From: Candidatus Peribacteraceae bacterium
Lineage (GTDB): Bacteria > Patescibacteriota > Gracilibacteria > Peribacterales > Peribacteraceae
Reading direction: 5' to 3'
DNA: 39,271 bases
NCBI GenBank assembly: GCA_041658365.1
Contig: JBBAAJ010000002.1
Location: 1-39,271, forward strand
Below, piece by piece: positions 1,436 through 25,047 of this stretch (its first letter is position 1; each line of letters starts with the position of its first letter). The position numbers were made by a program, and so were the translations under genes. Below the pieces are notes generated by a model. It was not told where the DNA came from, did not search any database, and saw nothing but the letters and a program-made list of their open reading frames with translations.

Positions 1436-1439
1436 TTCT

Positions 1440-2513: not shown

Positions 2514-2553
2514 GGTTCCCCGTACAATTCAGCCCCGCTTCACTCCTCATCGT

Positions 2554-3177: not shown

Positions 3178-3265
3178 TTGCTAAATGGTTAAATTGTTAA
3201 ATTGTTCGCAAGCGAAGCGTCGAGTGTTGCCTGTCAGCAATTTAACAATTTAGCAATTTAACAAT
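3176..3265. repeat. AT-rich long hairpin, copy 1 of the CGCAAGCGAA-core family
   Basis: The left arm aattgctaaatggttaaattgttaaattgtt is an imperfect inverted repeat of the right arm agcaatttaacaatttagcaatttaacaat. The loop carries cgcaagcgaa (3207-3216). The element starts at the PPIase stop codon and a T7 run follows at 3274-3282. Confidence 0.8.
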
Positions 3266-3290
3266 AGGTGTATCCTTTTTTTCGATCTGC

Positions 3291-4793
3291 ATGCGCACTC
3301 GCTTCGCTCCCTCCCCTACCGGCTTCCTCCATGTGGGGGGCGTCCGTACGGCGCTTTTTGCCTGGCTGATGGCAAAAAAAACCAAGGGGACTTTCGTGCT
3401 AAGACTTGAAGACACCGACCGTGCGCGGGAAGCCCCGGGAGCCGCCGAGAACATTTTGAAGACTCTGGCTTGGGCAGGCCTTTCTCCGGACGAGGGTGTG
3501 ATGCTTGAGGGGGAGACAATAGTCGAGCGTGGAACCTTTGGTCCGTATGTACAATCGAAGCGCGTACACCTGTATCAGGAGTATGCCGACCAGCTTATAA
3601 AAAGCGGCCAAGCCTACCACTGTTTTTGCAGTCCTGCGCGGCTCGAAGAAATGCGAAAACTTCAGGAGGCGCTCCGTCAGGCGCCGATGTATGACCGGAC
3701 ATGTCTGGAACTGTCCGCTGAAGAAGTGAAAGAGCGATTAGATGCTGGGGAGAAACACGTGCTTCGCATGAAGATCCCGCGCGAGGAAACGATCGTCTAT
3801 GACGACGAGATCTACGGAAAACTGTCCTTCAAGGGACATACGGTGGATGACCAGATCCTGCTCAAATCGGACGGTTTCCCGACGTACCACCTGGCGCACG
3901 TGGTGGATGATCACCTGATGCAGATGGACATGGTCATTCGCGGCGAAGAATGGCTTTCGTCTTTGCCCAAGCATTTGCTTCTGTTCCGGTTTTTGGGCTG
4001 GACTCCCCCGAAATATGCCCATGTTCCCCTGATTTTAAATACAGATCGGACCAAACTTTCCAAGCGCCAAAATGACGTGGCGACCGAGCAGTACATCGAA
4101 AAAGGTTACCTAGCCGAAGCGCTCATAAATTTTTTGGCGCTCCTTGGCTGGAACCCGGGAACCGAGCAGGAAATTTTCACCCGGGAAGAGCTTCTGCATG
4201 CGTTCTCGCTGAACCGGGTTCAAAAATCGGGGGCAGTTTTCGATCTTCAGAAACTCGACTGGGTTCAGGGGCAATGGATGCGGAAAATACCGGTGACGGA
4301 TTTTGCGGACCGGATAAAATCACTGGTGTCAGCCAGGTATCCGGCTGCCGCCGAAGATGAAAAATTTATCGCGAAAGCCGCATTGATTCAGACGCGGATC
4401 ACATTTTTTCCGGAGGCGGCGGAAATGCTCGCGTTCTTTTACGAATCTCCGGTTGTGTCAAAAGACGTCTTGGTCAATCCGAAACAGGGAGTCACCGAAA
4501 GCGAATTGCCAAAAATTATCGATTTTTTACTTGAGAGCCTTTCTTCAATACCGAATTCTGAATGGCGAAAAGATGTAATTGTAAATGTTCTTGAATCCTC
4601 AAATATTTCAAGATTTGCCAGCAAGGCTGCCGGAGGAGTTGATTTATCCACTTGTCTAAAAAAAGGACAATATCTCTGGCCGCTCCGCGCCGCGCTTACC
4701 GGCAGACCTTTCAGCCCCGGGGCCTATGAGGTCGCAGCTCTTCTGGGGAAAGAAGAAACGTTGAAGAGACTAAAGTCAGGGAGTCGGGAATAG
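3291..4793 (+). CDS. gltX: glutamyl-tRNA synthetase
   Basis: Class I motifs PSPTGFLHVGGVRTALF (HIGH region) and KLSKRQ (KMSKS). Length and overall similarity fit bacterial GluRS. Confidence 0.92.
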   Translation: MRTRFAPSPTGFLHVGGVRTALFAWLMAKKTKGTFVLRLEDTDRAREAPGAAENILKTLAWAGLSPDEGVMLEGETIVERGTFGPYVQSKRVHLYQEYADQLIKSGQAYHCFCSPARLEEMRKLQEALRQAPMYDRTCLELSAEEVKERLDAGEKHVLRMKIPREETIVYDDEIYGKLSFKGHTVDDQILLKSDGFPTYHLAHVVDDHLMQMDMVIRGEEWLSSLPKHLLLFRFLGWTPPKYAHVPLILNTDRTKLSKRQNDVATEQYIEKGYLAEALINFLALLGWNPGTEQEIFTREELLHAFSLNRVQKSGAVFDLQKLDWVQGQWMRKIPVTDFADRIKSLVSARYPAAAEDEKFIAKAALIQTRITFFPEAAEMLAFFYESPVVSKDVLVNPKQGVTESELPKIIDFLLESLSSIPNSEWRKDVIVNVLESSNISRFASKAAGGVDLSTCLKKGQYLWPLRAALTGRPFSPGAYEVAALLGKEETLKRLKSGSRE

Positions 4794-5010: not shown

Positions 5011-5544
5011 TTGAAAATGCAAAAAATCTATCAAAAGTCAGCAATTCGAGGAAACCGCTTGCCTCACGATACTTCTGGTACACTGGGTACCATGAGTGAC
5101 GTTGAAGTAGATATTTCCACGGAGGGCGGCAGGGCCGTGATCGAGGGGAAGACGTCGGTTCCCTTCCGCACGTTCGTGAGCCTCATCCTCCAGAGGAAGG
5201 TCCAGACAATCTTCAAGAAGTGTCAGGATGATCCCGTGATCGTCGGGAGCGAGCTCTTAACTGCGCTCGCGAGCGCGCCGGACGATCGTCAGGAGGATCG
5301 GAGCAAGCTGGTGCTCGTGACGTTCGGCATGGGGGTGCTTGCCGGGATCTTTCTCACGGTGCTCACGTTCGTTCTTCTTGCAATGTTCGGCGTGCGGCCG
5401 CAGGACAAAGACCTCCTCATCGTTCTGGGGATTTTCCTCGTCGTTGCTGTTGTCATGTTCGTGCTTCTCCACGTGCAGCGAACGCCGGGAAAGCAACAGC
5501 TCTACGACACGATGGAGAAGATCAAAGATCTGATAATGCGATAG
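5011..5544 (+). CDS. hypothetical membrane protein (two C-terminal TM helices)
   Basis: Hydrophobic segments LVLVTFGMGVLAGIFLTVLTFVLLAMF and LLIVLGIFLVVAVVMFVLL. The start is uncertain (TTG 5011, ATG 5017 or ATG 5092). No family recognised. Confidence 0.5.
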   Translation: MKMQKIYQKSAIRGNRLPHDTSGTLGTMSDVEVDISTEGGRAVIEGKTSVPFRTFVSLILQRKVQTIFKKCQDDPVIVGSELLTALASAPDDRQEDRSKLVLVTFGMGVLAGIFLTVLTFVLLAMFGVRPQDKDLLIVLGIFLVVAVVMFVLLHVQRTPGKQQLYDTMEKIKDLIMR

Positions 5545-6572: not shown

Positions 6573-7421
6573 TCAGAACGGCAAATCCTCCGGCTTGATC
6601 TCGGATTCGTATTTGACAGAGGGAATCGCTGCGGCGGCCACGAGGGCCGGCTCCGGCTCGGCGGGAGAGACGGCGGCGGAAGCGTCCGTCCGGACGGATG
6701 CCAGGATCTCCGTATTGCGTGTACCGAGGAGGGAGACATGGTCGGCGATGATCTCCGTCGTCGCGCGTTTCTGGCCGGCCTGCGTTTCCCATGTGCGCGT
6801 CTGCACGCGGCCGGAAACATAGATGCGCTGCCCCTTCCGGACGGCATGCTGCACGGCCTTGGCGAGGTCTCCCCAGATGACGACGGAGTGGAATTCCGTC
6901 CGTTCCTTGGATTCCTGCGATGCCTTGTCCCGCCAACGCTCGTTCGTGGCGACACTCAGCGTGAGAACGCTTACGCCACTCGTCGTCGTGCGGATCTCCG
7001 GGTCGCGGGTGACGTTTCCGATGACCTGTGCGCGGTTGAGACATTGGAGGAGAACGCCGGCATCCGACGGCGGTTCAGTCTGCCCGTCCTTGGGATCGAG
7101 GAGAATCATGTCAAGCGCGACCACCTTGGTCTTCGAGCGCTTCTCGCCAGACTGAGTGTCCTCCCAGCTGTCTGTCTGAAGGCGGCCGGAAACAAAGATC
7201 TGTGCGCAGGGCTTCACGTACTGGCCTGCTATGTCGGCCATACCGCCCCAGACGGTGACCGTATGGAAACTTCTGCCGGCGAGGGACTCGCCACGCGCGT
7301 TCTGGAAGGAGTACGGCACGACGAGATTCAAGTCTACGACGCTTGTGCCGGCGGGCGTCTGGCGGAGGGTAAGTGGTTGTGTTTGGTAGCCGATGAGTTC
7401 GACCCTGTTGAGTGAGAACAT
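6573..7421 (-). CDS. ssb: single-stranded DNA-binding protein with two tandem OB folds
   Basis: It starts MFSLNRVELIGYQ (ATG 7421). A second OB begins at LNRAQVIGNVTRDPEIR. Both halves share the ...FH.V..WG......V.KG..I.VSGR.QT..WE... pattern. The C-terminal tail is EDLPF. The ORF extension to 7625 was rejected. Confidence 0.85.
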   Translation of the reverse strand: MFSLNRVELIGYQTQPLTLRQTPAGTSVVDLNLVVPYSFQNARGESLAGRSFHTVTVWGGMADIAGQYVKPCAQIFVSGRLQTDSWEDTQSGEKRSKTKVVALDMILLDPKDGQTEPPSDAGVLLQCLNRAQVIGNVTRDPEIRTTTSGVSVLTLSVATNERWRDKASQESKERTEFHSVVIWGDLAKAVQHAVRKGQRIYVSGRVQTRTWETQAGQKRATTEIIADHVSLLGTRNTEILASVRTDASAAVSPAEPEPALVAAAAIPSVKYESEIKPEDLPF

Positions 7422-7536
7422 CTCTGCGGGGGGAATGGAAGTAAAGGAGGTTGCCGTGGACGAACGTACACCCTGCCAGATTGAGTGGCAAACAAAAGGA
7501 ATTGAAGAAAAAGAATTTTGTTTCTTGGTAGTAAGA

Positions 7537-7693
7537 GAACCTCCGATTAATCGGCAGTATTCCACATCAGCAGCGGCCGTCCCGGCCGCGGCGAATGAAA
7601 AATTGCTGCGTTGTCCATCACGCAAACACCGCGGCTCGGAAAGCCGCTGCTGTTATGTTGTTGTTCGCGAACGATAGCATTTATCGGAGGTTC
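7537..7693 (+). repeat. ~157-nt structured element, copy 1 (candidate ncRNA or MITE-like element)
   Basis: A near-identical core recurs at 25991-26157. The 15-bp terminal stem pairs 7537-7551 with 7679-7693. A perfect 10-bp inner stem pairs cagcagcggc (7568-7577) with gccgctgctg (7643-7652). Strand assignment is tentative. Confidence 0.6.
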
Positions 7694-7759
7694 CTAAGTT
7701 CTGATTCTCCGATCATAGGCAATAGACAATAGAGTCCAGTACACTCGCGAGCGGAACCC

Positions 7760-10735
7760 ATGCGACAGCGCATCATGCTCTCCCTTCTGGCCTCTCTCCT
7801 CCTCACGACCGCCTCGGAGGCGGGGGCAGCTCCGTTCATCCCGAAAATGAACGAGCCGAAATCCTACAAGGACGCGCTCTTCGGCGCGGGAGAAACGCGG
7901 CAGAACATCGAGTCGGTGGACTGCGGCGGATTCGACAAGGATTCGAATGCCACGGTGAACGGTACGACGATGACGGGTGGCAACGTGCCGATTCCCGATG
8001 TGAGCGCGGATCTCCCTGGGCGGGACAACGGTAATCCGCTCGGCGATCCTAAGACCGGTCTCGGTACCCGCGGGGATTTCCAGTATCCCGGCTCTGCGTG
8101 GGGCTACCTCTCCGCGTGCAACATGTACACGGACAAAATGCGCGATCCTGATCTCGAGAAAATGGAGAAAGACATCAAGCTCAAGATCGCGGATGAGGAT
8201 GACCCCAACAGTGAGATTTCTGCGGAAGTCGTTGATGGTCATGGGGATATCGATATCAACCCCAAGCGATGGTGCATACGGTTCGATAAAGCGACGCCCT
8301 CCTGGTGCAGGGCACTCTACAGATGGTTCCAGATTCTTTCCGCGAGCGCCTCAGCGAACGACCTCCGCCCGGCTATCAATCCCGACTGCCCGAATCCTCC
8401 GTCGAAGAAATACTGTTTCGATGATCCGTACACGAAGGAATGCAACGGCGAAGAATGCCGCACGGTATCGATGCCCGATTTCGGCAGCAAGGTTTCGGAG
8501 TGCCACAGGGAAACGGATGCGGATGGGAACGAATTCGTCGTCACTGATGTCGGCGGCTACGAATACGGGACCAAGAGTTCCTTCTACCGGCACTATGCAG
8601 GGGGTTTCAGAGAACCGGAGATCATCGTGACGGAGTACAAGAACAAGGATGGACCGCACAATATAAAAAAATGGAAAGTCCGTGCCGAGTGTTACGAGTA
8701 CTACATGGAGAGCGATCCGAAATACCGGGTGACCGGGCGGGCAGATGAACAGTGCGAGTTCGTCATCTCGACTCCCGGGGAACAGAATCCCGACACACCC
8801 GAGTGGGTCGAGGGGGACGGACACAAGCAGAAGAAGGGGTACGTGCCGGAAGCCGGATTGGTGCAGGATCCTCCGCGTGACCCCAGGACAGCCCCCGAGC
8901 CCTGGGTGGCGGATACGGAGACGAACCTCTCGATGATTGACATGAAGCGCCTCAAGGAACTCCAGAAGGATTTCGAGGATCCGACGGACATCACCGGGGT
9001 GATCGGCGCGCTCCTCCCTGCGAAGCAGCGCGCCACGAAGACGACGCCGGACTACGCGCGCACGGATATGTTCGATGACACGGCGGAGAGGAAGATGAGC
9101 AACTTCTGGGAAGATCAGCAGAAGGAACTCCTCAAGATGGTGACGGAGCCCGCGACGAGGCTTGTGCTGCCCGCGCGCGCGTTCGTGGGGTTGCAGAAGA
9201 ATGATCCGTTCTTCCAGTATGTGCGCAGCATCGTCTCCCGTTCCAACGGCATCGTGGAAATCACGCTCCGCGCGGGGCAGGAGGACGTCGGGAACGCACT
9301 CCTTTCCCTCGAGCGCAATCTCATCATGCCGATCCGCGAAGTGCGCATTCCGCTCATCGTGCCGCTTGTATCCGGGGAGGAGCTCAACACGCGCATCTTC
9401 GAATGGAAACAGTGGAAAATGCGCGAGGACAAAGATGCCGAGAAGCCCCCGGGACGCCCGTCGTACGCTGGCATGGCCAATCCACTCATCATCAAGCTCG
9501 AGCAATACCGTGATGCACTGAAGACGGAGCGGCGCATGCGCGGCGCACTGGCGAATTACCTCGTGAAGCTCTTCGACAAACAGCGGCAAATCCGCGAGTA
9601 CATCGCCAATTGGTACACATCGGATACGGCTGCTCTGGAGATGGCGAAACTACAGTCGGAAGACCGCCGACGGCTCAAGTGGATCTGGCGCCGGTTGCAG
9701 CGCGCGATGCTGCAGACAGACGAGTGTCAGCTCCAGTGGTGCAGTAACCAGCGGTACTCCGCGCCGGTCTACTCATTGCTCGACCTGTGGTGGGGGGACC
9801 GTCAGCCCGGCGAAATCCGGAATGTCGGCTACCTGCCGCGCGACCTCAAAGACCTCCGCTACGAGCAGCCGAAGGACAGGGTTTTCGATTTCTCGAAGAT
9901 GGGGTTCGCTACAGGCGGGCTCTTAGTCCCCGTCCTCTGGCCCGTGCAGGTGAAACTGAAGCTGCCGCTTCCTCCGACCGTGGGATTGCCGCCGAATCCG
10001 GACGACTTCCCGGCTCTCGCCTCGTTCCCGAACGAAACCGTCTTTGATTCGTTCACTGTTCCCGCGGTCACTCTCCCACCGCAGACGCCTCTGCCGCCGT
10101 CCCCGGCCGCGGATTTGAGTGAGGCAATGCAGATCCTCCGCGAGTACCGCAAAATCGTGGATGGGACAGATTTCCCTGAGCAGGAGCAGGAGGAAACAGT
10201 CGCGATGGCCGGCACGCCCCCGCCGGATGACGCTGGCCCATGGAAGGATCGCGGCAGTATGCGCGGTTCGTACTGCCGCTTCCCCCCGAGCATCATGATC
10301 CCGCCGGACCCCGAAGATAAGCACGGGAATCCCGACAAAATCATACATGTGGAGAACGACCTGAAGGAACGCTTGGCGCGCCTCTTCTCGCGCTGGATGC
10401 CGGAACGAATGGAGGACGTAGGAGGACGCGCAGTGCGGCTCAATGACGAATTCGCCAAGCCGGATGACATGGCTTGCCGTGAGGATGTCGTCTGCAATTC
10501 TCTCGCTCCGGAACAGACGACGACCGCGACCTGGCAGTGGTTCATGAAGGCGACGACCGCCGAGTTCACAACACTCGCCGATGCAATGCGCACGCTCACT
10601 TGCCCGTTCTGCGAGCCGCCGGATGAAACGCAGAATCCCTACCTCGACACGCCCGTAGAGCTCATCAAGCGCACGTTCCAGAGATTGCCGCTCCCCATCG
10701 AGATTCCCCTGCTCCCCAACCCCCCTCCCCCGTGA
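7760..10735 (+). CDS. hypothetical exported protein P1 (991 aa), Cys- and Pro-rich
   Basis: Signal peptide MRQRIMLSLLASLLLTTASEAGA. It has many Cys residues and Pro-rich tracts (LPLPPTVGLPPNPDDFP, C-terminal LLPNPPPP). No motif recognised. It is the first gene of a coupled operon. Confidence 0.75.
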   Translation: MRQRIMLSLLASLLLTTASEAGAAPFIPKMNEPKSYKDALFGAGETRQNIESVDCGGFDKDSNATVNGTTMTGGNVPIPDVSADLPGRDNGNPLGDPKTGLGTRGDFQYPGSAWGYLSACNMYTDKMRDPDLEKMEKDIKLKIADEDDPNSEISAEVVDGHGDIDINPKRWCIRFDKATPSWCRALYRWFQILSASASANDLRPAINPDCPNPPSKKYCFDDPYTKECNGEECRTVSMPDFGSKVSECHRETDADGNEFVVTDVGGYEYGTKSSFYRHYAGGFREPEIIVTEYKNKDGPHNIKKWKVRAECYEYYMESDPKYRVTGRADEQCEFVISTPGEQNPDTPEWVEGDGHKQKKGYVPEAGLVQDPPRDPRTAPEPWVADTETNLSMIDMKRLKELQKDFEDPTDITGVIGALLPAKQRATKTTPDYARTDMFDDTAERKMSNFWEDQQKELLKMVTEPATRLVLPARAFVGLQKNDPFFQYVRSIVSRSNGIVEITLRAGQEDVGNALLSLERNLIMPIREVRIPLIVPLVSGEELNTRIFEWKQWKMREDKDAEKPPGRPSYAGMANPLIIKLEQYRDALKTERRMRGALANYLVKLFDKQRQIREYIANWYTSDTAALEMAKLQSEDRRRLKWIWRRLQRAMLQTDECQLQWCSNQRYSAPVYSLLDLWWGDRQPGEIRNVGYLPRDLKDLRYEQPKDRVFDFSKMGFATGGLLVPVLWPVQVKLKLPLPPTVGLPPNPDDFPALASFPNETVFDSFTVPAVTLPPQTPLPPSPAADLSEAMQILREYRKIVDGTDFPEQEQEETVAMAGTPPPDDAGPWKDRGSMRGSYCRFPPSIMIPPDPEDKHGNPDKIIHVENDLKERLARLFSRWMPERMEDVGGRAVRLNDEFAKPDDMACREDVVCNSLAPEQTTTATWQWFMKATTAEFTTLADAMRTLTCPFCEPPDETQNPYLDTPVELIKRTFQRLPLPIEIPLLPNPPPP

Positions 10736-11469
10736 GCATGCGGCGATTCCCTCTCATGGTCATCGGCCTCCTGTTCCATCTCTTCCTCCTGCCGGCGGCA
10801 TGGGCGCAAGTAAGAGAAGGCCCGGCACAACTCTGCCGCAACAAACTTGCCGGTGAGCTGAGCAAGGTACATGACGAATTCCGATCGTACGTTTTCGGGA
10901 GTCGCCTGGATGCGGAGGGAACCTTCACCGTCCTCACGGGAGGGCATGCGGATGCCGAACGGAAAGGCATTTTCGAGACGCAGGGGCGCCTGACGTCCGA
11001 GCTCGTCCCCCCGCTCGTGGAGAGTTACCGCGCTCTCCGGTGCCGGAGTTACACGATCTGCGCAGTCCTGCGTGAGTCTGTCGGAGTCAAGGGTGGAGAG
11101 GTCACTGTGCGTCCTCTCGGGTGCACGGAACAGACGGTCCCCCGGTACGCGGGGTGTTACCTCGCGGAACCGCAATCTACGTTCACGGCTTCCCAGAACG
11201 ATGAGGACGACCTCCGAAAGTACTGCGGGCAAATGGTAGAGGACTCGCTCCAATTCGAGCGCAGGGCTCTTCAACTCGCCGTGGCGTACGACAGCGGCTA
11301 CCGCGCGAGCGCGCAGCTGGCCGGAATGATCGACTGGGTGCAGGTGGAGTTCCCCGAGTACGTGCTGAAGCCACTTCGTGACATGGTGGGACTTCTCGGG
11401 AAACTCTACGAAATTCCCTGTTTCATCGGGCAGTGCGATTACCCGGATACCTCAGGCCTCGTTCCATGA
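10732..11469 (+). CDS. hypothetical exported protein P2 (245 aa)
   Basis: The GTG start overlaps the P1 stop (GTGA at 10732-10735); an alternative ATG is at 10738. The signal peptide is MSMRRFPLMVIGLLFHLFLLPAAWAQ. The mature part has 8 Cys. Confidence 0.7.
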   Translation: MSMRRFPLMVIGLLFHLFLLPAAWAQVREGPAQLCRNKLAGELSKVHDEFRSYVFGSRLDAEGTFTVLTGGHADAERKGIFETQGRLTSELVPPLVESYRALRCRSYTICAVLRESVGVKGGEVTVRPLGCTEQTVPRYAGCYLAEPQSTFTASQNDEDDLRKYCGQMVEDSLQFERRALQLAVAYDSGYRASAQLAGMIDWVQVEFPEYVLKPLRDMVGLLGKLYEIPCFIGQCDYPDTSGLVP

Positions 11470-12317
11470 CTGCTGCTTCACCATCCTCCGGCTTGCTCTC
11501 TGCCCTCCGTGATACGTGGCGAAGGCATCGGCTGCTCATTGTCGTCATGGTCATCTTGAGCGTCGTGGCCGCGCTCACGCAGGTGAATCTCCGTGGGAGT
11601 CTCCTCGGCGGGACGGGGACAGGCGGAACCAGCAGTTCCGAGGGGAGCCTGCGTACCTGCAGCGATGCGTGGACCGTCTTCGAGGGGAAGGAGAACGCGA
11701 CTGAGATCATGAATCTCTTCAGGAGCGAAGTGACGAAGGCCGTGGAAGAGCGCGTGCAGTACTTCGAGAAACCGTCGAATTGGAAATGCATGGACAAGGA
11801 ACCCTCGATGCCGAAGCTTCGAGCACTTGCGGCGAAACTTCCCGGCTGGCACTACCCGCAGGGCGGGCCGGGGGCGGGAGGAAGCCCGCTGGCGTTTCCC
11901 TTGCGGCCGGTACTCTTCGAATCGTCCGCGTCGGTCCTGGGCGAATTCCTCCGCGAGTACGAGTGCAAGATCGTCGCTCTCGATGCCCGCGCGACCTATG
12001 CGGTTCTCACGGGGAATGACATTGATGCGCCCTGCCTGCCAGGGGCATGTCCCCCTGTCAATTCCGCCGATCTCGCGGTGAGAGTGGGGGCCTACCGCGA
12101 GCGCCTGAAACAGGAACGCAGCCGCGCGCGGCTCGCGCTCGAACGGACGCTCCATCTCCTCCGATCGTTCGATGCGAACTATCAGGCGGCGCGCGACATC
12201 GTCTGTCTCCAGCGGGCGTCGCTCGATCTCCGCAGTGAACTGAATCTCCTCGCGGATACCACCAGTTGCATGCCGAAGATCTGGGATGCACTCACCTCCA
12301 TCCATGACCGCAAGTAA
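11466..12317 (+). CDS. hypothetical membrane-anchored protein P3 (283 aa)
   Basis: ATGA start/stop overlap with P2 (11466-11469). It has an N-terminal anchor RRHRLLIVVMVILSVVAALTQV followed by a Gly/Ser linker and a Cys-containing domain. Confidence 0.7.
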   Translation: MTAASPSSGLLSALRDTWRRHRLLIVVMVILSVVAALTQVNLRGSLLGGTGTGGTSSSEGSLRTCSDAWTVFEGKENATEIMNLFRSEVTKAVEERVQYFEKPSNWKCMDKEPSMPKLRALAAKLPGWHYPQGGPGAGGSPLAFPLRPVLFESSASVLGEFLREYECKIVALDARATYAVLTGNDIDAPCLPGACPPVNSADLAVRVGAYRERLKQERSRARLALERTLHLLRSFDANYQAARDIVCLQRASLDLRSELNLLADTTSCMPKIWDALTSIHDRK

Positions 12318-12320
12318 CCC

Positions 12321-14138
12321 ATGAGCCGCCTCCTCGTCGCCATCGCGTTCTCCGCTCTCCTGCTCCCGCAGGCGGGAAGCGCGCAGAGCTCGCTCTTCGA
12401 ACTGGTGTACAAGGAGGCGAAGAGAGCCAATCCGGACTACCTCAGCGAACAGCTGATAGAGTTCGTCGGCGTGGAGATGCAGACGTGGAGAGGGAGCGGC
12501 ATCTGGCTCTCGTCCGACGATATCAAGTACGCGATCGAGAAAAATCAGAGCGCGCTCTGCAAGGACAAGACGACCATAGCGGGTACACCCATCCAATTCG
12601 TGATGGGTGGGAACATTTCCGGTGAATCATGCATCGGTTTGCAGGGCGACATCCTCTCGCTCATCGCGTCGGAGCAGGAAGCGGAACAGCTCGGCGCCGA
12701 TCTCCTCACGATTGCCAATGGCTCGGAACTCGCGCTGTCCAACGAGCCGCATCGCCCGCTGGAGATGGGGAAAATGGCGATGCTCCTCAAACGCACGTGG
12801 GTCGGGTCGGGAGGAGCGGTCATCCCGTGGGATGGGACGGCGGATAGCGAAGTGCAGACGCTCGACAGCGCACTCGCGGCACTCACGCCCGCCGACCTCG
12901 ACAAGGCGATTCTCCGCTTCCACCACGGGTACTTCCGCGACCAGCGCGAGGCGGATCCGGCGTTCTCCGTCGTCGCGGGCGTCGGTGACGCCCTCAGAGC
13001 GATCGCGAACAAGCTGCGTATTACCGGCGATCCGACCATGGTGGGGGAATTCGCGACGCCGAAGCTTAAGGTGACGCCCAATGTCGCGCTCTGGGCACGG
13101 AAAGACGATCTGGGGATTCTCTGGGTATACCCCATGCATTTCGCGCGTGGCACCATCGAGCGGGCCGGGGAATACCCCGTAATGGTCGAGAATGGGGAGA
13201 CGCTCGCGTATCCTTTCTCCTACAAAGGCTCCACTCCGCCCACGGACCCGGAAATTCGTAGCCCGCTCTGCAGCCGGTCACTCGGCCGTTTCGGGTATCT
13301 CTGCCGGCCGCAGCCTCCCTTCGACGAGGATTGCACGCGGCCCGGCAGCGACGGCATCACCCTCGTGAAGTGCTCGGAGAAAACGACGGAGACGGAGTCG
13401 AGCCCGAAAGCCTGCGCGGATCTCGAGAATCTCTACAGCGATACGGGCGGTCCGCTCGAGGACCCGGATAACCCGGCGCACGTAAGTCCGGATCTCGAAC
13501 TCGCGGATCTCGAGGGGATCTGCGCGCCGGATACGAAGGTGCTCTACCAGGACTCTGTCGCCTCCAACACCTGTTACATCGATCACTGTCTCATTCAGTC
13601 GATGCGCAGGCACACGCTCATCCCCAACCGCAATACGGTGCTCTTAAACGAAGCGACCTCCCCCTTCCTCGCTTGCATCCGGCGTGACCCGCAGCTTGGA
13701 CGGTACACGGAAATCGCCCATCCAACACCCTTCGCATTTCCGCCGTACATCGGGCACCTTCTGACGATTGATTACGAGCGTGAGTACTGCGTGAAGAACG
13801 GGAATGCGCCACACCCGCTCGCGGGATACTGTGCGTATCGGAGCAGCAGGAGATCGAATTCGCCGGACATCATGCAGTTTTTCACGGCGGCGGCAATGAA
13901 CATCGAAGCGCAAGAAGTGGCGGAAGATCAGGACACGGTGCTCTCTGCCGCCGCGAACATCGGTGAACGTGCGGCGCTCGAGCAGTCTGCGACCGTCCAG
14001 CGGAAGGTATTCGGATCGCTTGCGTCGTTCGTCCAGCAGGTGGCCGATCTTCTTCTGGAACTCAAGAACGCCCCGCTCACCAAGACGCCCTGCCCGTGGA
14101 CTGGGCCATTCAAAACTTCTTCCAGCGCCGCGCCGTGA
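12321..14138 (+). CDS. hypothetical exported protein P4 (605 aa), Cys-rich
   Basis: It starts 3 nt after the P3 stop. The signal peptide is MSRLLVAIAFSALLLPQAGSAQS. No motif recognised. Confidence 0.75.
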   Translation: MSRLLVAIAFSALLLPQAGSAQSSLFELVYKEAKRANPDYLSEQLIEFVGVEMQTWRGSGIWLSSDDIKYAIEKNQSALCKDKTTIAGTPIQFVMGGNISGESCIGLQGDILSLIASEQEAEQLGADLLTIANGSELALSNEPHRPLEMGKMAMLLKRTWVGSGGAVIPWDGTADSEVQTLDSALAALTPADLDKAILRFHHGYFRDQREADPAFSVVAGVGDALRAIANKLRITGDPTMVGEFATPKLKVTPNVALWARKDDLGILWVYPMHFARGTIERAGEYPVMVENGETLAYPFSYKGSTPPTDPEIRSPLCSRSLGRFGYLCRPQPPFDEDCTRPGSDGITLVKCSEKTTETESSPKACADLENLYSDTGGPLEDPDNPAHVSPDLELADLEGICAPDTKVLYQDSVASNTCYIDHCLIQSMRRHTLIPNRNTVLLNEATSPFLACIRRDPQLGRYTEIAHPTPFAFPPYIGHLLTIDYEREYCVKNGNAPHPLAGYCAYRSSRRSNSPDIMQFFTAAAMNIEAQEVAEDQDTVLSAAANIGERAALEQSATVQRKVFGSLASFVQQVADLLLELKNAPLTKTPCPWTGPFKTSSSAAP

Positions 14139-15844
14139 GAAAATTTCTTACAAGATCGGCAATAGGGAGCATTAGTCTGACCCTGTGTTTCTTTCTGATC
14201 CTTCCGGTCACTGCTTCGGCTCAAACGGTCCTCTCGCCGTGGGTCCGGCAGGTCATTGACCGTTCCAATGACGGCATTGCCATGGCGGGAGGCCTCGGAG
14301 GAACGAACTGCGACCCGGACACGGTCATCGCGGCGATCGACGCGAACACATCGGTCGTCCGGTACTGGGTCATGACGACCAGAGATCTCTCGACCGAGGC
14401 ACAATTTCTCCGCGAGCGTACCGTCTGTTTCGAGAATGACCGCTCTCTCCTCGGTACGCAGCTCGAGCTCATTCGCACCAAGCTCAACGATGCGATCCAG
14501 GCGTGCAATATCAGTGCCGCAGGAGCACTCCGTGATAACTATGACTTCACTGCGGCGGCATACGCCTCGCTTCTGAAGGGGGGGGTGGACCCGACGTACA
14601 GAGACAATCGTCTTCGCCTGAAGTACCCGTTCCATAATCTCAGCCTTTGGAGTACCGGGGGACAGCCCGTATTCGACTCAGGTTCTCTTGCCCCCCTCTG
14701 CCCTTTCACGACGGATTACGCGCCGCATTCCTACGGGTACGTTCCCTCTCCGGGGAACGTGGTCATTGTGAGCGGGCAGGCAGCCGATATACGCAGTTAC
14801 GGCTGCGACCGCGACGTACTCGCGACGATTGGCGGGGACCTGCAGCAGGAAGCACTGGCACTCCAGACCTTCCAGGACACGGCGCGCTCCTTCGCGGAGA
14901 TGTTCTATAACCTCATGATCGCGACACTTCCGCGCCTTCCCGGGGATGAAGGCGAGACCTACGATCCGGCTTCCTCCGTCCCTCCGCACGAGAAACTCAG
15001 CGGGTGTCTCCGTCCGGCGCTTCCAATGCCGGGTGGCGGCTCAAACGGACAGGACAACTCAGCGATTCTCCTCGAGGAGATTTTCGCAGGCTTTCCGGAC
15101 TACTTCGACCAGGAGAATGCGAAAGTCGATCCTGGTACAAACAGCGTCACCTACGCTCCTCTGCCCGAGGCAACCCTGCCGGTGGGGCTGCTCCTCAGGA
15201 GCACGTACGATTTCTTCCTCGCCATCCCGAACTCCCTGATTCTCGATCGGTCGTTCCTGTTCAAGAAAGCCGACATCGGACGGGCGCGTCCGCTTCCACA
15301 GGAACTTACATCTCTTTCCTTCGTGTCACAATTTTTCTTTACGTTTCTGCAGAGAGTCGTGCCGAGTGAGCTGAGGACGGTTTCATCGAATATCGAGCGT
15401 GAGATGGGGAATCTGGAAGCGGAAGACCGGGATGCCATTGGCCGGAGCAGGGAGGCACTGATGCCCCTCACCGAGGCCGTGGACGCACTCTCGGAGATCG
15501 TGACGGAGGCGGGGTTCCTGCCCGAGAAATACACGCCCGACCTCACATACTTCCTGCTCCGTTCCTGCGTGGACGGCCCCTGCCAGCAGACCCTCGATCG
15601 CGTCATGCAGCGCACATTCAATCCGTACTGTCATCCGTACGTTTCCGGGAAGTACGCAGAGGAGGACGCCTACAAGAAGTGCTACTGCGATCCATCGGTT
15701 CAGGCGAGTGATCGTGGCTTCTGGGACAAGTATTGCTCGCAGGATTTGAGCTCGGAGCAGGGCCGGTACGATTCCATGCAACCGACACTCATCCCGGGAT
15801 GTTTGGAGGAGAGCAGCAGCTCGAGTTCGAGCTCAGGTTCCTGA
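14135..15844 (+). CDS. hypothetical exported protein P5 (569 aa), Cys-rich, poly-Ser tail
   Basis: In-frame GTG at 14135 overlaps the P4 stop (GTGA). This gives the signal peptide (M)RKFLTRSAIGSISLTLCFFLILPVTASAQ. The ORF track's alternative start is 14096. The C-terminus is SSSSSSSSGS. Confidence 0.7.
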   Translation: MRKFLTRSAIGSISLTLCFFLILPVTASAQTVLSPWVRQVIDRSNDGIAMAGGLGGTNCDPDTVIAAIDANTSVVRYWVMTTRDLSTEAQFLRERTVCFENDRSLLGTQLELIRTKLNDAIQACNISAAGALRDNYDFTAAAYASLLKGGVDPTYRDNRLRLKYPFHNLSLWSTGGQPVFDSGSLAPLCPFTTDYAPHSYGYVPSPGNVVIVSGQAADIRSYGCDRDVLATIGGDLQQEALALQTFQDTARSFAEMFYNLMIATLPRLPGDEGETYDPASSVPPHEKLSGCLRPALPMPGGGSNGQDNSAILLEEIFAGFPDYFDQENAKVDPGTNSVTYAPLPEATLPVGLLLRSTYDFFLAIPNSLILDRSFLFKKADIGRARPLPQELTSLSFVSQFFFTFLQRVVPSELRTVSSNIEREMGNLEAEDRDAIGRSREALMPLTEAVDALSEIVTEAGFLPEKYTPDLTYFLLRSCVDGPCQQTLDRVMQRTFNPYCHPYVSGKYAEEDAYKKCYCDPSVQASDRGFWDKYCSQDLSSEQGRYDSMQPTLIPGCLEESSSSSSSSGS

Positions 15845-15956: not shown

Positions 15957-18900
15957 ATGAAATCCTCAGACTTCGTCCATCTCCATTGCCACAGTACGTA
16001 CTCTCTCCTCGAGGCGCTCCCGCTGCCCGAGGAGATCGTCCTGCGCGCGAAGGAACTGAAACAAACGGCGGTGGGGCTCGCGGACAAGGGGTATACCTAC
16101 GGCCTCATCGAGTTCTACAAGGCGTGCAAAGATCAGGGACTCAAGCCGGTTCTGGGCCTCGAAACGTACGTGGCCGCGCGCACACGTTTCGACAAGGAAA
16201 GCTCGCAGGATACGCGGCGCTATCCGCTGGTGTTGCTCGCCGAAACCGATGAGGGTTACTTAAACCTTCTGGAACTGGCTACCCACGCGGCGCTGGAAGG
16301 CATGTATTACAAGCCGCGCGTTGATGCGGAGCTCCTGAAACAGTTTGGACGCGGTCTCATCGCGCTCTCCGGTCCGATCAGCGGCGCTATAGCGCAGGCG
16401 GCCCTCGCGGAGGATGCCGAGAGGGTGAAGATGCTCGTGGAGCAGTACCGCTCGTTCTTCGGTCCCGGGAATCTCTACTTCGAACTCATGGACCTGCCGG
16501 CGGTCCCCGGGCAGTCGGAGGTGAATCAGCAGCTCATCCGTCTGGGGAAGGAACTGGATGTTCCTCTGGTCGCCACAGCGAACAGCCACTACTGTCGCCG
16601 GGAAGACGCGGAGGCCCACGACGTACTCCTCTGCATTCAGAAGAACGACACCGTCCAGGACACCGGCCGCTTCACCATGCGCGACAGCGACTTCTCGATG
16701 CGCCCCTTCGAGGAAATGGAGCGCGCGTTCGGACATGTTCCACAGGCACTCGAGAACACGCGGATCATTGCGGATCGATGTAACGTGACTCTGTCGTTCG
16801 GCAAGTATCGGATTCCAAAATTTCCAGTGGAAAAGGGTCAGACCGAGGAATCGCTTCTGAAGGAAAAATGTGAGGAAGGGCTGATGAAGAAATATGCGAA
16901 TGTCTTTGGGGAAAGCGTTCCATCGGACAAAGGTCGTTCCGCGTTGCGGGTTACGCGTTCCGAGTTGGATAACGTTCAACGCGCAACGTTCAACGCGCAA
17001 CAAATTCGTGAGCGCCTGAATTACGAGTTGGAAGTCATCAACAAGATGGGCTTCGCCGGCTACTTCCTCATCGTTGCGGATTTCGTTTCCGAGGCCAAGC
17101 GCCGCGGGATCACCGTGGGGCCCGGCCGCGGGTCCGCCGCGGGATCCATCGTGAGTTACGTTCTCGGCATCACCACGCTCGATCCACTCGAACAGGGTCT
17201 CCTCTTCGAGCGGTTTCTCAACCCCGAGCGCATCTCCATGCCGGACATCGATATCGACTTCGCGGACACGCGGCGTGACGAAGTTCTGGACTACGTCCGG
17301 CAGAAGTACGGCTCTGACCGGGTGATCCAGATCTGTACCTTCGGAACGCTCGCGGCCCGGGCGGCGGTGAAGGACGTTGGCCGCGCGCACGGAGTGTCCT
17401 TCGCGGAGATGAACGCGCTGGCCAAGCTTATCCCGGACCGCCCCGGGACCCAGCTCTTAGACGCCCTCGAGACCGACGAATTGAAACAGGAGTTGCAGAC
17501 GAATGAGACCTACCGCAAGATCGTGGAAGTCGCGCTCAAGCTCGAAGGCAAGGCCCGCCATGTTTCAGTTCACGCCTGCGGGGTCGTCATTACCCCTGAG
17601 CCGGCCATGAAGTACACCGCGCTCCAGCGCGCGCCCAAGGACGAGGAGATCATCATCACCCAGTACGGTGCCAAACCTCTCGCAGCACTCGGACTTCTGA
17701 AGATAGACTTCCTGGGCCTCAAGAACCTCACGATCATCGAGACGGCACTCCTCATCATCGAGCGTCTCCATGGGGAGAGGATTGACATCAGTCAGATCCC
17801 GACGGGCGACAAGAGTACCTTCGATCTCCTCTCCCGCGGTGAGACGACGGGCGTCTTCCAGCTGGAGTCGGCGGGGATGCGCAGGTACTTAAAGCAACTT
17901 AAACCGACGACGATTGATGACATCACCGCCATGGTGTCCCTCTATCGCCCCGGGCCGATGGAAAAAATCCCGGACTACATCCAATGCAAACAAGGCGAGA
18001 AGGAAGTCACGTACCTGCACAAGGATCTTGAACCGATTCTCAAGCCGACCTTCGGAGTAGTCATCTATCAGGAACAGGTTTTCGAAATGGCCAGATTGTT
18101 GGCGGGTTTCACGCTCGGTGAAGCCGATCTGCTGCGCCAGGCAATCGGCAAAAAAATTAAAAAAGAGCTGGATGCACTCCGGGAAAAATTTATCCGCGGA
18201 ATGGTGGCGCACAAATACCAAAAGACGCTTGCTGAAAGGATTTTCGAAGATGTTGTCATGCCGTTCGCAAATTATGGTTTTAACAAATCACACGGCGCCT
18301 GCTACGCGCGCATCGCCTACGAGACGGCGTACCTGAAGGCGCACTACCCGACCGAGTTCATGGCGGCGCTCCTGAGTTCCGAAGAGGGCGATACCGACCG
18401 CATTTCCATCGAGATCGAGGAGGCGCGCGCCATGGGGATCGATGTGCTCCCGCCGGACATCGGCGAGTCGCTCGCGCACTTCACTGCCCTTCCCGACGGG
18501 AAGATCCGCTTCGGCCTGCTCGGCATCAAAGGGGTCGGGGAGAGTTCCATCCGGCAGATCATCGCGATTCGCGACGGTGCGGACGGCAAAGAACGTCGCC
18601 CATTTGCCACCATCGAGGACTTCGCGGCACGCATCTCCAGCAAGATTCTCAACAAGAAACTCCTCGAATCGCTCGCGAAATCCGGTGCCTTAGACTCGCT
18701 GGGAGAACGCGGAAAATTCGTGAACCAGTACGCTATGATCGCGGAGCATAGCAAATCTGTCGGCGACGTCGGCACCTCGCAGACAGATATGTTTGCCGCC
18801 CTCGGTCAGGGGGTGGCAGCGGCAGCCATTGCGTTCGATACCGGCGAAAGCGCGACTGCGGCGCAGAAGCTCCTGTGGGAGAAGGAGACGCTCGGACTCT

Positions 18901-19799
18901 ACGTCTCCAGCCACCCGCTTGCCGGACTCCGGAAGTACATGAGCAAGAAAGCCCGTCTGATCGATGGCCTTTCGGCGGACGACGCCGGGCACAAGATTAC
19001 GATTGCGGGGATTCTCGAGCAGGTGAAGATGCTGCATACGAAGAAGGGCGAGACCATGGCGATTCTCACCATCGAGGATCCGACGGGCAGGATGGAAGCG
19101 ACGCTCTTCCCGCGCATGTACGCGCAGCACAAAGACCTTCTCGAAAAGCCCGATTCGGTTCTGGTGATGGCGGGAGTCATGGATATGCGGATGGGGCAGC
19201 CGCAACTTCGCGTGGATGCGCTGAAGCGCGTTTCCCTCGAGACCATGGTTGCCCACGCCAAAGCGGAGGGGATGTTCTCCGAGGACGAGACGCGACATTG
19301 GCGCGGAAGATCCGTACGCAAACAGGAGTTCGAGGAGAGCGGCGAACTGGTGAGCGAGGAGGGCGAGGTCATGACCAAGCGCATTCAGCGGAAGGCGGGC
19401 GCGCCGGAAAGAAGCAGCGGCATCTACGACGGGCCGCTCGCGCAATGGATCATCCAGGGAATGCGCAGAGAAGCACCTCTCGAGGCGTTGGGATTCCATC
19501 AGGACATGCAAGAGAAGAATCAAGAAGGGAAGGGAGAGGGCGAGGAGGAAACCGACTCCTCCTCCCCGATCAGCGTCGTGCAAACGAGCGGAGGCCTTTC
19601 CATTCATACGGTCGTTCTTCCTGCGAGAGCCCCGAGACACCTCCTTCTCGAGATCAAGACGATTTTCGAAACGTTCCCCGGCAGAGAGAAAGTGCAGCTC
19701 AAGATCGGCGACCAGCTCGTCCCCGTTCCTCTCACGATCGCGATGTCGCTCATTCTCGAGAAGAGGATCGAAGAAGCGGTAAAGAAGTACGTTGGATAA
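15957..19799 (+). CDS. dnaE: DNA polymerase III alpha subunit
   Basis: PHP domain FVHLHCHSTYSLLEA, palm/fingers motifs (GPGRGSAAGSIVSY, FERFLNPERISMPDIDIDF, GLLKIDFLGL) and a C-terminal OB fold. The start was chosen at MKSSDFVHLH; the GTG at 15861 would run through the hairpin. Confidence 0.95.
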   Translation: MKSSDFVHLHCHSTYSLLEALPLPEEIVLRAKELKQTAVGLADKGYTYGLIEFYKACKDQGLKPVLGLETYVAARTRFDKESSQDTRRYPLVLLAETDEGYLNLLELATHAALEGMYYKPRVDAELLKQFGRGLIALSGPISGAIAQAALAEDAERVKMLVEQYRSFFGPGNLYFELMDLPAVPGQSEVNQQLIRLGKELDVPLVATANSHYCRREDAEAHDVLLCIQKNDTVQDTGRFTMRDSDFSMRPFEEMERAFGHVPQALENTRIIADRCNVTLSFGKYRIPKFPVEKGQTEESLLKEKCEEGLMKKYANVFGESVPSDKGRSALRVTRSELDNVQRATFNAQQIRERLNYELEVINKMGFAGYFLIVADFVSEAKRRGITVGPGRGSAAGSIVSYVLGITTLDPLEQGLLFERFLNPERISMPDIDIDFADTRRDEVLDYVRQKYGSDRVIQICTFGTLAARAAVKDVGRAHGVSFAEMNALAKLIPDRPGTQLLDALETDELKQELQTNETYRKIVEVALKLEGKARHVSVHACGVVITPEPAMKYTALQRAPKDEEIIITQYGAKPLAALGLLKIDFLGLKNLTIIETALLIIERLHGERIDISQIPTGDKSTFDLLSRGETTGVFQLESAGMRRYLKQLKPTTIDDITAMVSLYRPGPMEKIPDYIQCKQGEKEVTYLHKDLEPILKPTFGVVIYQEQVFEMARLLAGFTLGEADLLRQAIGKKIKKELDALREKFIRGMVAHKYQKTLAERIFEDVVMPFANYGFNKSHGACYARIAYETAYLKAHYPTEFMAALLSSEEGDTDRISIEIEEARAMGIDVLPPDIGESLAHFTALPDGKIRFGLLGIKGVGESSIRQIIAIRDGADGKERRPFATIEDFAARISSKILNKKLLESLAKSGALDSLGERGKFVNQYAMIAEHSKSVGDVGTSQTDMFAALGQGVAAAAIAFDTGESATAAQKLLWEKETLGLYVSSHPLAGLRKYMSKKARLIDGLSADDAGHKITIAGILEQVKMLHTKKGETMAILTIEDPTGRMEATLFPRMYAQHKDLLEKPDSVLVMAGVMDMRMGQPQLRVDALKRVSLETMVAHAKAEGMFSEDETRHWRGRSVRKQEFEESGELVSEEGEVMTKRIQRKAGAPERSSGIYDGPLAQWIIQGMRREAPLEALGFHQDMQEKNQEGKGEGEEETDSSSPISVVQTSGGLSIHTVVLPARAPRHLLLEIKTIFETFPGREKVQLKIGDQLVPVPLTIAMSLILEKRIEEAVKKYVG

Positions 19800-19828
19800 A
19801 AAAGCTTTAAGCTTATGTCTTAAGACTT

Positions 19829-20422
19829 ATGATTGTTTCAGAACAGATGCTGGCTCAGGCGCTCCAAATACTTGCATCAGGTGGCATCGTCGCTCATGCC
19901 ACCGAGACCTGTTACGGCTTCGCCTGCGATTTAACGAATCCGGAAGCCGTCAAACATCTTTTCGCTTTAAAGAAGCGGCCTCTTGACTCGCCAGTCAGCG
20001 CGTTATTTTCATCGCTTGATGAAGCGAAGAAGTTCGTCGAGTGGAATGACGAAGCGGAAAAACTGGCGCGCAAATATCTCCCCGGCCCGCTCACATTGAT
20101 TCTCCCGCAGCGGGAAAAATCGCCCGTTCTTTGGATAGTCCCAAGTCCCAAGTCCCAAGTCCCAAGTCCCAAGTCCCTCGGCGTCCGCATTTCCTCCCAC
20201 CCGCTCGCCCAAAATCTGGTAGCAGCCTTCGGAAAACCCTTAAGCACGACTTCGGCAAACCTTCATGGAATGGCAAACGCTTACAGTGCCGAAGAAATCG
20301 TTGAGCAGTTTTCAAAGCAAAAATTAAAACCGGATCTTATATTGGATTCCGGGAAAATTCCGAATGTGCCGCCATCGAAAGTCATTGATTTAACGAACAA
20401 AGGGAAGATTTTGAGGCAATGA
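19829..20422 (+). CDS. tsaC: L-threonylcarbamoyladenylate synthase (YrdC/TsaC-type, single domain)
   Basis: YrdC-fold motifs GGIVAHATETCYGFACD, KKRP, LPGPLTLIL, GVRISSHPLA and STSANLHG. Length is 197 aa. Confidence 0.8.
   Translation: MIVSEQMLAQALQILASGGIVAHATETCYGFACDLTNPEAVKHLFALKKRPLDSPVSALFSSLDEAKKFVEWNDEAEKLARKYLPGPLTLILPQREKSPVLWIVPSPKSQVPSPKSLGVRISSHPLAQNLVAAFGKPLSTTSANLHGMANAYSAEEIVEQFSKQKLKPDLILDSGKIPNVPPSKVIDLTNKGKILRQ
20137..20178 (+). repeat. heptanucleotide microsatellite (AGTCCCA x5 plus AGTCCCT) inside tsaC
   Basis: A direct read of ggat-agtccca-agtccca-agtccca-agtccca-agtccca-agtccct-cg. It is translated as VPSPKSQVPSPKSL. Confidence 0.95.
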
Positions 20423-20449
20423 AATGAAAAGGGAATGCTTCTTGCATCC

Positions 20450-20515
20450 GCAGGTAGATACCTGCTCCCGTTTTTCTTGGTTTTCTTTCATCCAAGGGAG
20501 CGGGTGTCTACCCGC
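20450..20515. promoter_or_regulatory. two related 16-bp palindromes upstream of nrdR (candidate operator sites)
   Basis: gcaggta-ga-tacctgc (20450-20465) and gcgggtg-tc-tacccgc (20500-20515). A third copy, gcgggta-tc-tacccgc, lies at 29091-29106 with the shared flanks gag...gt. Confidence 0.3.
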
Positions 20516-20539
20516 GTGTCTCAGAGCTATACTTCCTCC

Positions 20540-20986: not shown

Positions 20987-20987
20987 C

Positions 20988-21039
20988 TGGTAGTTAGTAA
21001 TTGGGGGGAAATTCCCTAGCTACCAGCTACTAACTACCA
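20988..21039. repeat. hairpin with tandem-repeat arms between nrdR and aspS
   Basis: tggtagttagta (20988-20999) pairs perfectly with tactaactacca (21028-21039). The 28-nt loop contains gggaa-a-ttccc. The element begins just after the nrdR stop codon. No U-tract follows. Confidence 0.65.
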
Positions 21040-21065
21040 TCTGCTTGTTCCGCTACTCTGTCCCC

Positions 21066-24978: not shown

Positions 24979-25047
24979 ATTCTATCACATTTCTGCCCCA
25001 CTTGGAAGTTGAAGCAGCCGCATAGCGTACCAATTTCGTGATAGAAT
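24979..25047. promoter_or_regulatory. perfect 10-bp inverted repeat ATTCTATCAC / GTGATAGAAT in a divergent intergenic region
   Basis: The arms are 24979-24988 and 25038-25047. Read outward, each arm is TGaTAGAAT, which resembles an extended -10. They may be mirror-image divergent promoters or an operator. Confidence 0.3.

Follow-up and report, generated by a model that had tools for sequence, protein, structure and literature searches.

The stretch analysed here, called the window, comprises 39,271 nucleotides (nt) of a Candidatus Peribacteraceae bacterium genome (contig JBBAAJ010000002.1, positions 1 to 39,271 of the forward strand). Between a divergently oriented ssb gene and dnaE, it carries five consecutive genes, P1 to P5, the products of which are predicted to be exported. 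These genes, as given by the list of open reading frames (ORFs), are the following:

7760..10735, + strand: P1, secreted multi-domain protein of 991 amino acids (aa)
10732..11469, + strand: P2, small secreted protein of 245 aa (243 aa if ATG 10738 is the start)
11466..12317, + strand: P3, membrane-anchored protein of 283 aa (alternative start at 11433, 294 aa)
12321..14138, + strand: P4, secreted protein of 605 aa
14135..15844, + strand: P5, secreted protein of 569 aa (alternative start at 14096, 582 aa)

The sizes of the five + strand ORFs (991, 245, 283, 605 and 569 aa) and their four junctions, as described in the initial annotation, were reproduced from the ORF list and the junction sequences. 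P1 and P2 overlap by GTGA, P2 and P3 by ATGA, P3 and P4 are separated by a 3-nt gap, and P4 and P5 overlap by GTGA. For P2, both GTG 10732 and ATG 10738 are kept in the closest relative (locus L039, 88-95% protein identity to the window), where the gene caller took the ATG. P2 may start at ATG 10738, which would leave a 2-nt gap instead of a 4-nt overlap. The P5 start codon GTG 14135 is also kept in L039 and no in-frame ATG lies ahead of the hydrophobic core, so that a start at 14135 appears reasonable. The overlaps had been taken to imply stoichiometric co-expression. Overlapping stop and start codons are insufficient for this on their own. Tight spacing is common in this genome (4 nt between ftsW and murG, 12 nt between sua5 and nrdR), and since tight or overlapping junctions are normal in a compact genome, the overlaps alone are weak evidence of coupling.

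The G+C content of P1-P5 (0.57-0.63) matches the remainder of the window. Long antisense ORFs, due to the GC-rich DNA, run across the region; they have neither homologues nor a coding signature, and only the + strand frames have both. When compared with L039, the ratios of nonsynonymous to synonymous substitution rates (dN/dS) are 0.23 for P1, 0.18 for P2, 0.27 for P3, 0.24 for P4 and 0.21 for P5. The corresponding values for neighbouring genes are 0.25 for murG, 0.23 for murB, 0.18 for dnaE and 0.06 for ftsW. Thus, the five ORFs are real genes, as attested by their homologues and by dN/dS, and they are under purifying selection with a constraint like that of murB, murG and dnaE. Sister lineages use genetic code 25. 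An alternative code with UGA recoding was rejected in the present case, every housekeeping gene in the window being a full-length ORF under code 11.

The five products had been described as orphan proteins. They belong instead to lineage-restricted families. In a collection of 5.8 billion proteins, 44 full-length homologues of P1 and 60 of P4 were found at 38-88% identity, the window P4 itself being present as a 100% match. A P1 profile, run exhaustively with HMMER against 1.84 billion representative proteins, gave 212 matches, 148 of them below 1e-30; the best 150 of the 212 were inspected. With an alignment of 38 sequences (21-51% identity) as query, a homologue search recovered only the 43 close proteins already obtained from the single sequence; the distant members, even those included in the alignment, were missed. 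All named homologues are labelled 'Candidatus Peribacteria', 'Peribacteraceae' or 'Peregrinibacteria', and a scan of one genome per GTDB species found 30 loci, every one in the Peregrinibacteria lineage.

In tblastn searches, P1-P5 were found in the same order, always with the divergent ssb ahead, wherever the contig reaches; among about 40 fetched loci, synteny is conserved with no exception in any locus long enough to show it. The junctions in relatives are mostly 4-nt overlaps or gaps below 10 nt. The block is complete and its order kept in five distant loci (L036, L037, L038, L040 and L041), which include relatives down to 21-26% identity. In these loci, the layout is ftsW-murG-PPIase (peptidyl-prolyl isomerase)-gltX-x-murB, ssb on the - strand, the five genes, then dnaE. 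In L036-L038, each gene matches its cognate profile only, with E values of 1e-20 to 1e-77 (about 1e-40 for P2). L036 is a Ca. Peribacter riflensis-type genome, and in the complete genome of Ca. Peribacter riflensis the block corresponds to genes 963-967 (1030, 279, 263, 821 and 521 aa), all annotated as 'hypothetical protein'. Breakpoints flank the block and never interrupt it: inversions affect the murB block in L003 and dnaE in L022. Some loci have small extra genes between murB and ssb, and insertions after P5 occur in L012, L013, L029, L031, L040 and L041. Between P5 and dnaE, L013 carries a gene for a 1143-aa protein with a signal-peptide-like N-terminus (18855-22286), L029 and L031 a gene for an RNA-binding protein of the RNA recognition motif (RRM) type, and L040 (19397-19828) and L041 (19991-20431), both Peribacter-type loci, a prepilin-type gene (MRKGFTLVELL..., weak Pfam N_methyl match).

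Mobile or viral relatives of the five genes were found neither in IMG/VR contigs nor, by tblastn, in PLSDB plasmids or GenBank phages, and the PHROGs and PADLOC libraries gave no match to P1-P5 at E ≤ 0.1. With these results, and with a chromosomal position fixed across the lineage, mobile, phage or defence cargo was rejected. The view that the genes form a resident system rather than recent cargo is thereby upheld: the housekeeping neighbourhood is the same lineage-wide, dN/dS resembles that of housekeeping genes and the GC content is native.

Signal peptides were sought with a heuristic test requiring a positive n-region, a hydrophobic core of 7-15 residues and small residues at positions -3/-1 (AxA/SxA). 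Type I signal peptides were found in P1, P2, P4 and P5, in the window copies as well as in essentially all of the about 25 orthologues per family, and without exception among those of P5. By the same heuristic, the cleavage sites in the window are predicted at AGA↓AP (P1), AWA↓QV (P2), GSA↓QS (P4) and ASA↓QT (P5). In all 29 P3 orthologues, the first 20 residues are basic and a single hydrophobic segment of 17-19 residues follows, forming an N-in anchor at about residues 23-40. In all of these, the 19-mer Kyte-Doolittle score reaches 1.7-2.6 at about residues 20-40, with two to seven K/R ahead. P3 conforms to the pattern of a bitopic type II signal anchor and a second membrane segment was not found. 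The four Sec signal peptides and the N-terminal anchor of P3 noted in the initial annotation are therefore present in the window and kept in orthologues. Motif scans of window proteins and orthologues also bear out its statement that lipobox, sortase signal and pilin-like N-terminus are missing. The lipobox [LVI][ASTVI][GAS]C occurs in none of the five window proteins and only as one chance match among about 135 orthologues. The LPxT[GAS] motif was found in 0 of about 110 P1, P3, P4 and P5 orthologues and in 1 of 29 P2 orthologues. No P1-P5 family has a C-terminal hydrophobic 17-mer, and no S-layer homology (SLH) domain (PF00395) was detected in P1-P5 at E ≤ 1. Because P1, P2, P4 and P5 have no lipobox, LPXTG motif, SLH domain or C-terminal anchor, their retention needs a partner. 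As judged from these signals, the four proteins should be released from the membrane, with P3 alone tethered.

No P1-P5 orthologue has a prepilin leader (G↓F(T/S)L(I/L)E) or a Pfam pilin match. This bears on the possibility that the five proteins are accessory to a type IV pilus or a competence pseudopilus, for instance as a wall-spanning conduit or a tip complex. Minor-pilin and tip-adhesin modules of type IV pili are likewise extracytoplasmic multi-protein assemblies from one operon, type IV pili are encoded by Peribacteria (PMC4736985), and a genuine prepilin gene lies 13-22 nt past P5 in L040 and L041. However, that gene is confined to one subclade; neither the window nor any of more than 30 other loci has it. 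Moreover, in compact genomes every neighbour is close, dnaE included, and P1-P5 contain no PilY1 or PilC domains. A pilus accessory is thus very improbable.

P1 begins with a signal peptide (about residues 1-23). A beta domain rich in Cys (about 60-340) comes next, then an alpha/beta domain (about 445-560) and a long helical hairpin (570-658); the protein also has Pro-rich linkers and, in the AlphaFold2 model, a helical C-terminal region. The model has a mean predicted local distance difference test score (pLDDT) of 71 and a predicted template modelling score (pTM) of 0.58; domain 60-340 is confident (pLDDT about 85-94). Conserved features of P1 are invariant Cys, Trp and Pro residues, the HVExDLxER motif and the invariant polar motifs SSFYRHYAG and HVENDLKERLxR. 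P3 has an extracytoplasmic domain with five universal cysteines and a conserved helical C-terminus. In P4, an all-alpha N-terminal domain is followed by a Cys-rich middle region and a C-terminal helix of about 65 residues; the protein also has a conserved ..CPWTGPF tail and the invariant polar motif FHHGYFRDxRE. Its AlphaFold2 model is of low confidence (pLDDT 62), with only the all-alpha N-terminal domain and the 65-residue C-terminal helix credible. In P5, an LSPWV motif stands right behind the signal peptide and is followed by a helical middle, a Cys-rich C-terminal module and a poly-Ser tail encoded at 15800-15841. Poly-Ser C-terminal tails (e.g., ...EESSSSSSSSGS) are also seen on varying subunits (P2, P4, P5) in L003, L006, L018, L028 and L029. 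Such tails may serve as linkers or as sites of O-glycosylation.

Among orthologues, the length of P1 varies between 991 and 1836 aa and that of P4 between 601 and 986 aa, while the sizes of P2, P3 and P5 stay the same. This pattern suggests that P1 and P4 are exposed subunits able to accept insertions, around a core that does not vary. In scans of individual family members against Pfam, one P1 orthologue has Big_9/cadherin-like inserts and another a collagen repeat; such inserts are characteristic of extracellular proteins. A single DUF4215 unit is present in a distant P5 orthologue (L037).

All five proteins contain several cysteines (18, 8, 7, 14 and 14 in P1 to P5), in line with the initial annotation, which had also counted 8 in mature P2. 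The corresponding contents are 1.8, 3.3, 2.5, 2.3 and 2.5%, compared with 0.2-1.4% in most cytoplasmic neighbours and a mean of 1.67% in the Peribacteria proteome (PMC4736985). The enrichment is moderate. Hence, of the earlier description as Cys-rich, the counts and the invariance of the core positions stand, and the enrichment itself is modest. Eight cysteines in P1, 8 of 8 in P2, 5 in P3, 13 in P4 and 8 in P5 are kept lineage-wide, including in relatives at 21-26% identity. Cysteine counts are mostly even in mature P1, P2 and P4, and odd in the P3 ectodomain (27 of 27 orthologues) and in mature P5 (20 of 24). These counts give a weak hint of one intermolecular disulfide between P3 and P5, with which they would be compatible, as they would be with a free thiol. 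A P3-P4 disulfide was dropped on the same parity count, P4 being usually even and P3 and P5 odd. At about residues 185-200 of P3, an insert of about 45 residues with six cysteines (FCC...C...C...C...C) is present in 21 of 27 close orthologues. Since this insert is absent from the window copy and from a few other lineages, the mini-domain has been gained or lost repeatedly.

Searches against Pfam and NCBIfam with the five window proteins returned no family at E ≤ 1. Pfam scans of about 160 orthologues taken one at a time (38 for P1, 46 for P4, 23 for P5, 27 for P2 and 26 for P3) gave only single-member matches at E > 0.008 and sporadic inserted Ig, cadherin or collagen domains. Curated envelope machines, including Mce/MlaD, Lpt, MreC, FtsQ/POTRA, HlyD/MFP, LytR-CpsA-Psr and others, showed no significant Pfam or NCBIfam match. 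Profile searches of PDB sequences with all five families gave a best E value of 0.7. For structures, a match was defined as E ≤ 0.001 or a template modelling score (TM-score) of at least about 0.5. Foldseek searches with the whole-chain P1 model reached at best E = 1.5 against PDB and 0.63 against BFVD, and those with the poor whole-chain P4 model E = 7.7 against PDB; whole-chain queries of a multi-domain model lose sensitivity. Matches to tail-tube proteins, variant surface glycoprotein (VSG) and vinculin were rejected as noise. Thus, Pfam, NCBIfam, PHROGs, PADLOC and PDB profiles hold no confident match to a known system, nor did the structure searches with the P1 and P4 models return a significant one. 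The five families are also unrelated to one another (hhalign probability below 6% for all), and no sixth copy or paralogue was found in the window or the fetched flanks.

These searches also bear on the idea that P1-P5 are an extracytoplasmic enzyme or assembly machine for wall or surface polymers, acting in peptidoglycan remodelling, on a secondary cell-wall polymer, in the S-layer or in glycan attachment. The block always adjoins the ftsW-murG-...-murB cluster and lspA/murA, the invariant polar motifs of P1 and P4 given above could fit such a role, and the level of conservation is housekeeping-like. It should, however, be noted that hydrolase, transferase or carrier matches were seen neither at E ≤ 1 nor across the orthologues scanned singly. 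In addition, the divergent ssb separates the block from the mur genes, and unrelated housekeeping genes (gltX, dnaE, sua5) are nearby too, so that the adjacency may be incidental. A wall machine is therefore considered a decidedly unlikely explanation.

The matrices of pairwise distances of P1, P3, P4 and P5 correlate with r = 0.85-0.93, compared with a mean of 0.70 between these proteins and their neighbours and of 0.65 among neighbours. After regressing out housekeeping divergence, the residuals of P1, P4 and P5 still correlate with r = 0.84-0.89 (12 taxa). This rate covariation can be set against the alternative that the five are independent secreted proteins, neighbours only through a collinear and compact region and sharing no common system. 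In favour of it, synteny extends over the whole region, junctions are generally tight and the five families show no sequence relationship. On the other hand, about 40 loci show breakpoints and insertions to either side of the block and none within it. All five products are exported, and no conserved flanking housekeeping gene matched an export-related family. Finally, four products lack any anchor, and the members of the set covary more strongly with one another than with neighbouring proteins. Mere neighbourhood accordingly appears as improbable as a wall machine.

It can be proposed that P1-P5 form a hetero-oligomeric envelope complex, anchored by P3, stabilised by disulfides and having a housekeeping role; we would give this proposal an even chance of being right. 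Co-transcription, physical association, the anchoring by P3 and the housekeeping role are all inferred; the complex itself is suggested by the single anchor, the unbroken gene order, the rate covariation and the cysteine parity. The five genes would be transcribed as one unit and would encode a resident envelope system that defines the Peregrinibacteria (class Peribacteria and relatives), a lineage within the candidate phyla radiation (CPR). All five products would be translocated by Sec, and structural disulfides would then form by oxidation outside the cytoplasm. One disulfide-formation protein has been reported in Peribacteria genomes (PMC4736985). P3 would stay in the membrane as a type II anchor, serving as a tether for P2, P5, P1 and P4. 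P2, P3 and P5 would constitute the size-constant core, P1 and P4 the outward-facing parts accepting lineage-specific insertions, and the long helices of P1, P3, P4 and P5 are candidate bundle-forming elements. The job of the complex could be envelope architecture, or a generic interface to the outside or to a partner cell. Going further, P1-P5 might be a phylum-specific and probably essential envelope machine of new folds, tethered by P3, locked by disulfides and possibly with a covalent P3-P5 link. Such a machine would carry a defining surface function of Peregrinibacteria, for example a contact or uptake interface letting cells auxotrophic for fatty acids and cofactors live off partners. This extended version is put forward only tentatively.

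Several points weigh against the P3-anchored complex. The whole neighbourhood of about 20 kb (ftsW...murB, ssb, dnaE, sua5) is collinear and its genes are tightly packed everywhere; as the region is collinear and compact lineage-wide, part of the synteny and junction signal is background. P2 covaries less than the other members (r = 0.72-0.80). The covariation may also be overestimated, since the distance signal is stronger in proteins that evolve fast than in slow ones. At greater depth, P1-P5 evolve 1.2-4 times faster than their neighbours, with mean Kimura distances of 0.9-1.2 versus 0.27-0.76. The argument from cysteine parity depends on guessed cleavage sites. The structure search covered P1 and P4 only, with a poor model for P4, and a known fold may have been missed. 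Since no catalytic or binding motif was recognised in P1-P5, a housekeeping envelope role lacks biochemical content. The multi-subunit cell-surface or periplasmic complex suggested in the initial annotation stands as a proposal that survived the checks against known systems, synteny and signal peptides.

A further alternative is an apparatus for attachment to host or partner cells, these bacteria being presumed episymbionts, with P1 and P4 as binding surfaces. Peribacteria are predicted symbionts with a heavy investment in extracellular proteins (PMC4736985). P1 and P4 vary in size, single orthologues bear Ig-like, cadherin-like or collagen inserts, and poly-Ser tails, possible sites of glycosylation, occur in several lineages. 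However, adhesins usually diversify and duplicate. Here, dN/dS equals that of housekeeping enzymes, gene order and core cysteines are unchanged lineage-wide and paralogues are missing from the window and fetched flanks. Furthermore, P1-P5 lie outside the strain-variable, highly Cys-rich set that has been tied to attachment (PMC4736985). Housekeeping-level constraint and lineage-wide invariance therefore argue for a core envelope role over a variable adhesin, and an attachment apparatus is regarded as unlikely, if the least so of the four alternatives considered.

That Cys-rich set, the large extracellular proteins of Ca. Peribacter riflensis (Anantharaman et al., PMC4736985), is the nearest described counterpart of the P3-anchored complex: its members come from the same lineage, are Sec-exported, with presumed disulfides and a proposed surface role, and have no assigned function. 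They are mostly 1000-3900 aa long (range 580-3860) with mostly 5-11% Cys (range 2.4-11.4%), and they contain Myxococcus-type Cys repeats and have been reported as a source of strain variation (PMC4736985). By contrast, P1-P5 have 1.8-3.3% Cys, no DUF4215 in the window copies, an invariant order and a housekeeping-level constraint. They show none of the features by which the set is defined. Genes 963-967 of Ca. Peribacter riflensis are not among the cysteine-rich genes of Table S4 (PMC4736985).

Two further systems invite comparison. In Mycoplasma pneumoniae, a host-dependent bacterium with a reduced genome, the Nap complex of P1 and P40/P90 consists of co-encoded large exported proteins that form a membrane-tethered surface complex. 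The mycoplasma adhesin subunits carry their own membrane segments and vary antigenically, whereas only P3 is anchored in the present set and P1-P5 are not antigenically variable. The library searches with P1-P5 gave no sequence or fold similarity to the Nap complex. The second comparison is with helical-hairpin coat proteins (trypanosome VSG, Borrelia PF12/BBH37), as the P1 model likewise has an antiparallel hairpin of about 90 residues beside a disulfide-rich domain. The Foldseek matches to these proteins are, however, at noise level (E 6-7, probability 0.01-0.02, TM < 0.2); the likeness concerns one element only and is no evidence of kinship.

The region upstream of P1 and the adjacent gene are the following:

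7422..7759, no strand assigned: ssb/P1 intergenic region, presumed promoter region and 5' leader of the operon
6573-7421, - strand: ssb, 282 aa from the conserved MFSLNRVEL start, with two SSB/OB domains in one chain

Where called in related loci, ssb products have 282-292 aa; the listed start at 7625 (TTG, 350 aa) is probably too far upstream. The ssb-P1 spacer measures 338 nt in the window versus 190 nt in L039, the first about 130 nt being nearly identical. The extra stretch of about 150 nt (7550-7700) has no counterpart in L039 and has a second copy at 26009-26159, at 89% identity, in the same orientation and adjoining a tRNA-Leu. The RNA folding of 7540-7760 is unusually stable (z = -3.7). 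No Rfam match was found for this structured stretch, the tRNA-Leu being the sole Rfam match in the window. A riboswitch or leader RNA was rejected, as the structured stretch is a repeat element missing from L039 and has no Rfam match; the repeat looks like a small element of the miniature inverted-repeat transposable element (MITE) or repetitive extragenic palindromic (REP) type. Upstream of P1, the + strand showed no sigma-70-like site that exceeded chance, and in the promoter and terminator scan sites were no commoner than in shuffled sequence.

Other parts of the window encode further proteins. Between gltX and murB, 5011-5544 encodes a small membrane protein (about 150 aa in relatives) with a weak match to holin superfamily III or MarC-like proteins; the gene is kept in most loci examined and absent in L038. 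The segment 25001-26000, over an ORF at 25038-25994 (318 aa) with no Pfam match, has an AT skew of +0.50 and a GC skew of +0.19. No Pfam match was obtained for the ORFs 26397-28679 (- strand, 760 aa) and 37235-38341. An exported-type protein with SLH domains is encoded at 29275-30912, and an exported-type protein with the Myxococcus Cys-rich repeat DUF4215 and 2.4% Cys at 35499-37238. Both are kinds of surface protein already reported for Peribacteria (PMC4736985).

As far as the libraries searched here allow, the five families and their operon are outside every known family tested, and they had previously been recorded only as 'hypothetical protein'. Conserved lineage-specific operons of hypothetical genes are not rare in CPR genomes, and P1-P5 may yet turn out to be analogous to some surface complex of known type. 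The CPR makes up a large share of bacterial diversity, and its cell biology has been inferred almost wholly from genes with known homologues. With the block come five new protein families and at least one domain (P1 60-340) that was modelled with confidence and has no structural match. Because the parts would be soluble ectodomains and one anchor, the complex hypothesis could be tested by recombinant expression without cultivation. Unbroken from 88% to about 21% identity, the gene set behaves as a synapomorphy-like marker of the lineage, and it offers a bounded target for what distinguishes the envelope or the lifestyle of the uncultured Peregrinibacteria.

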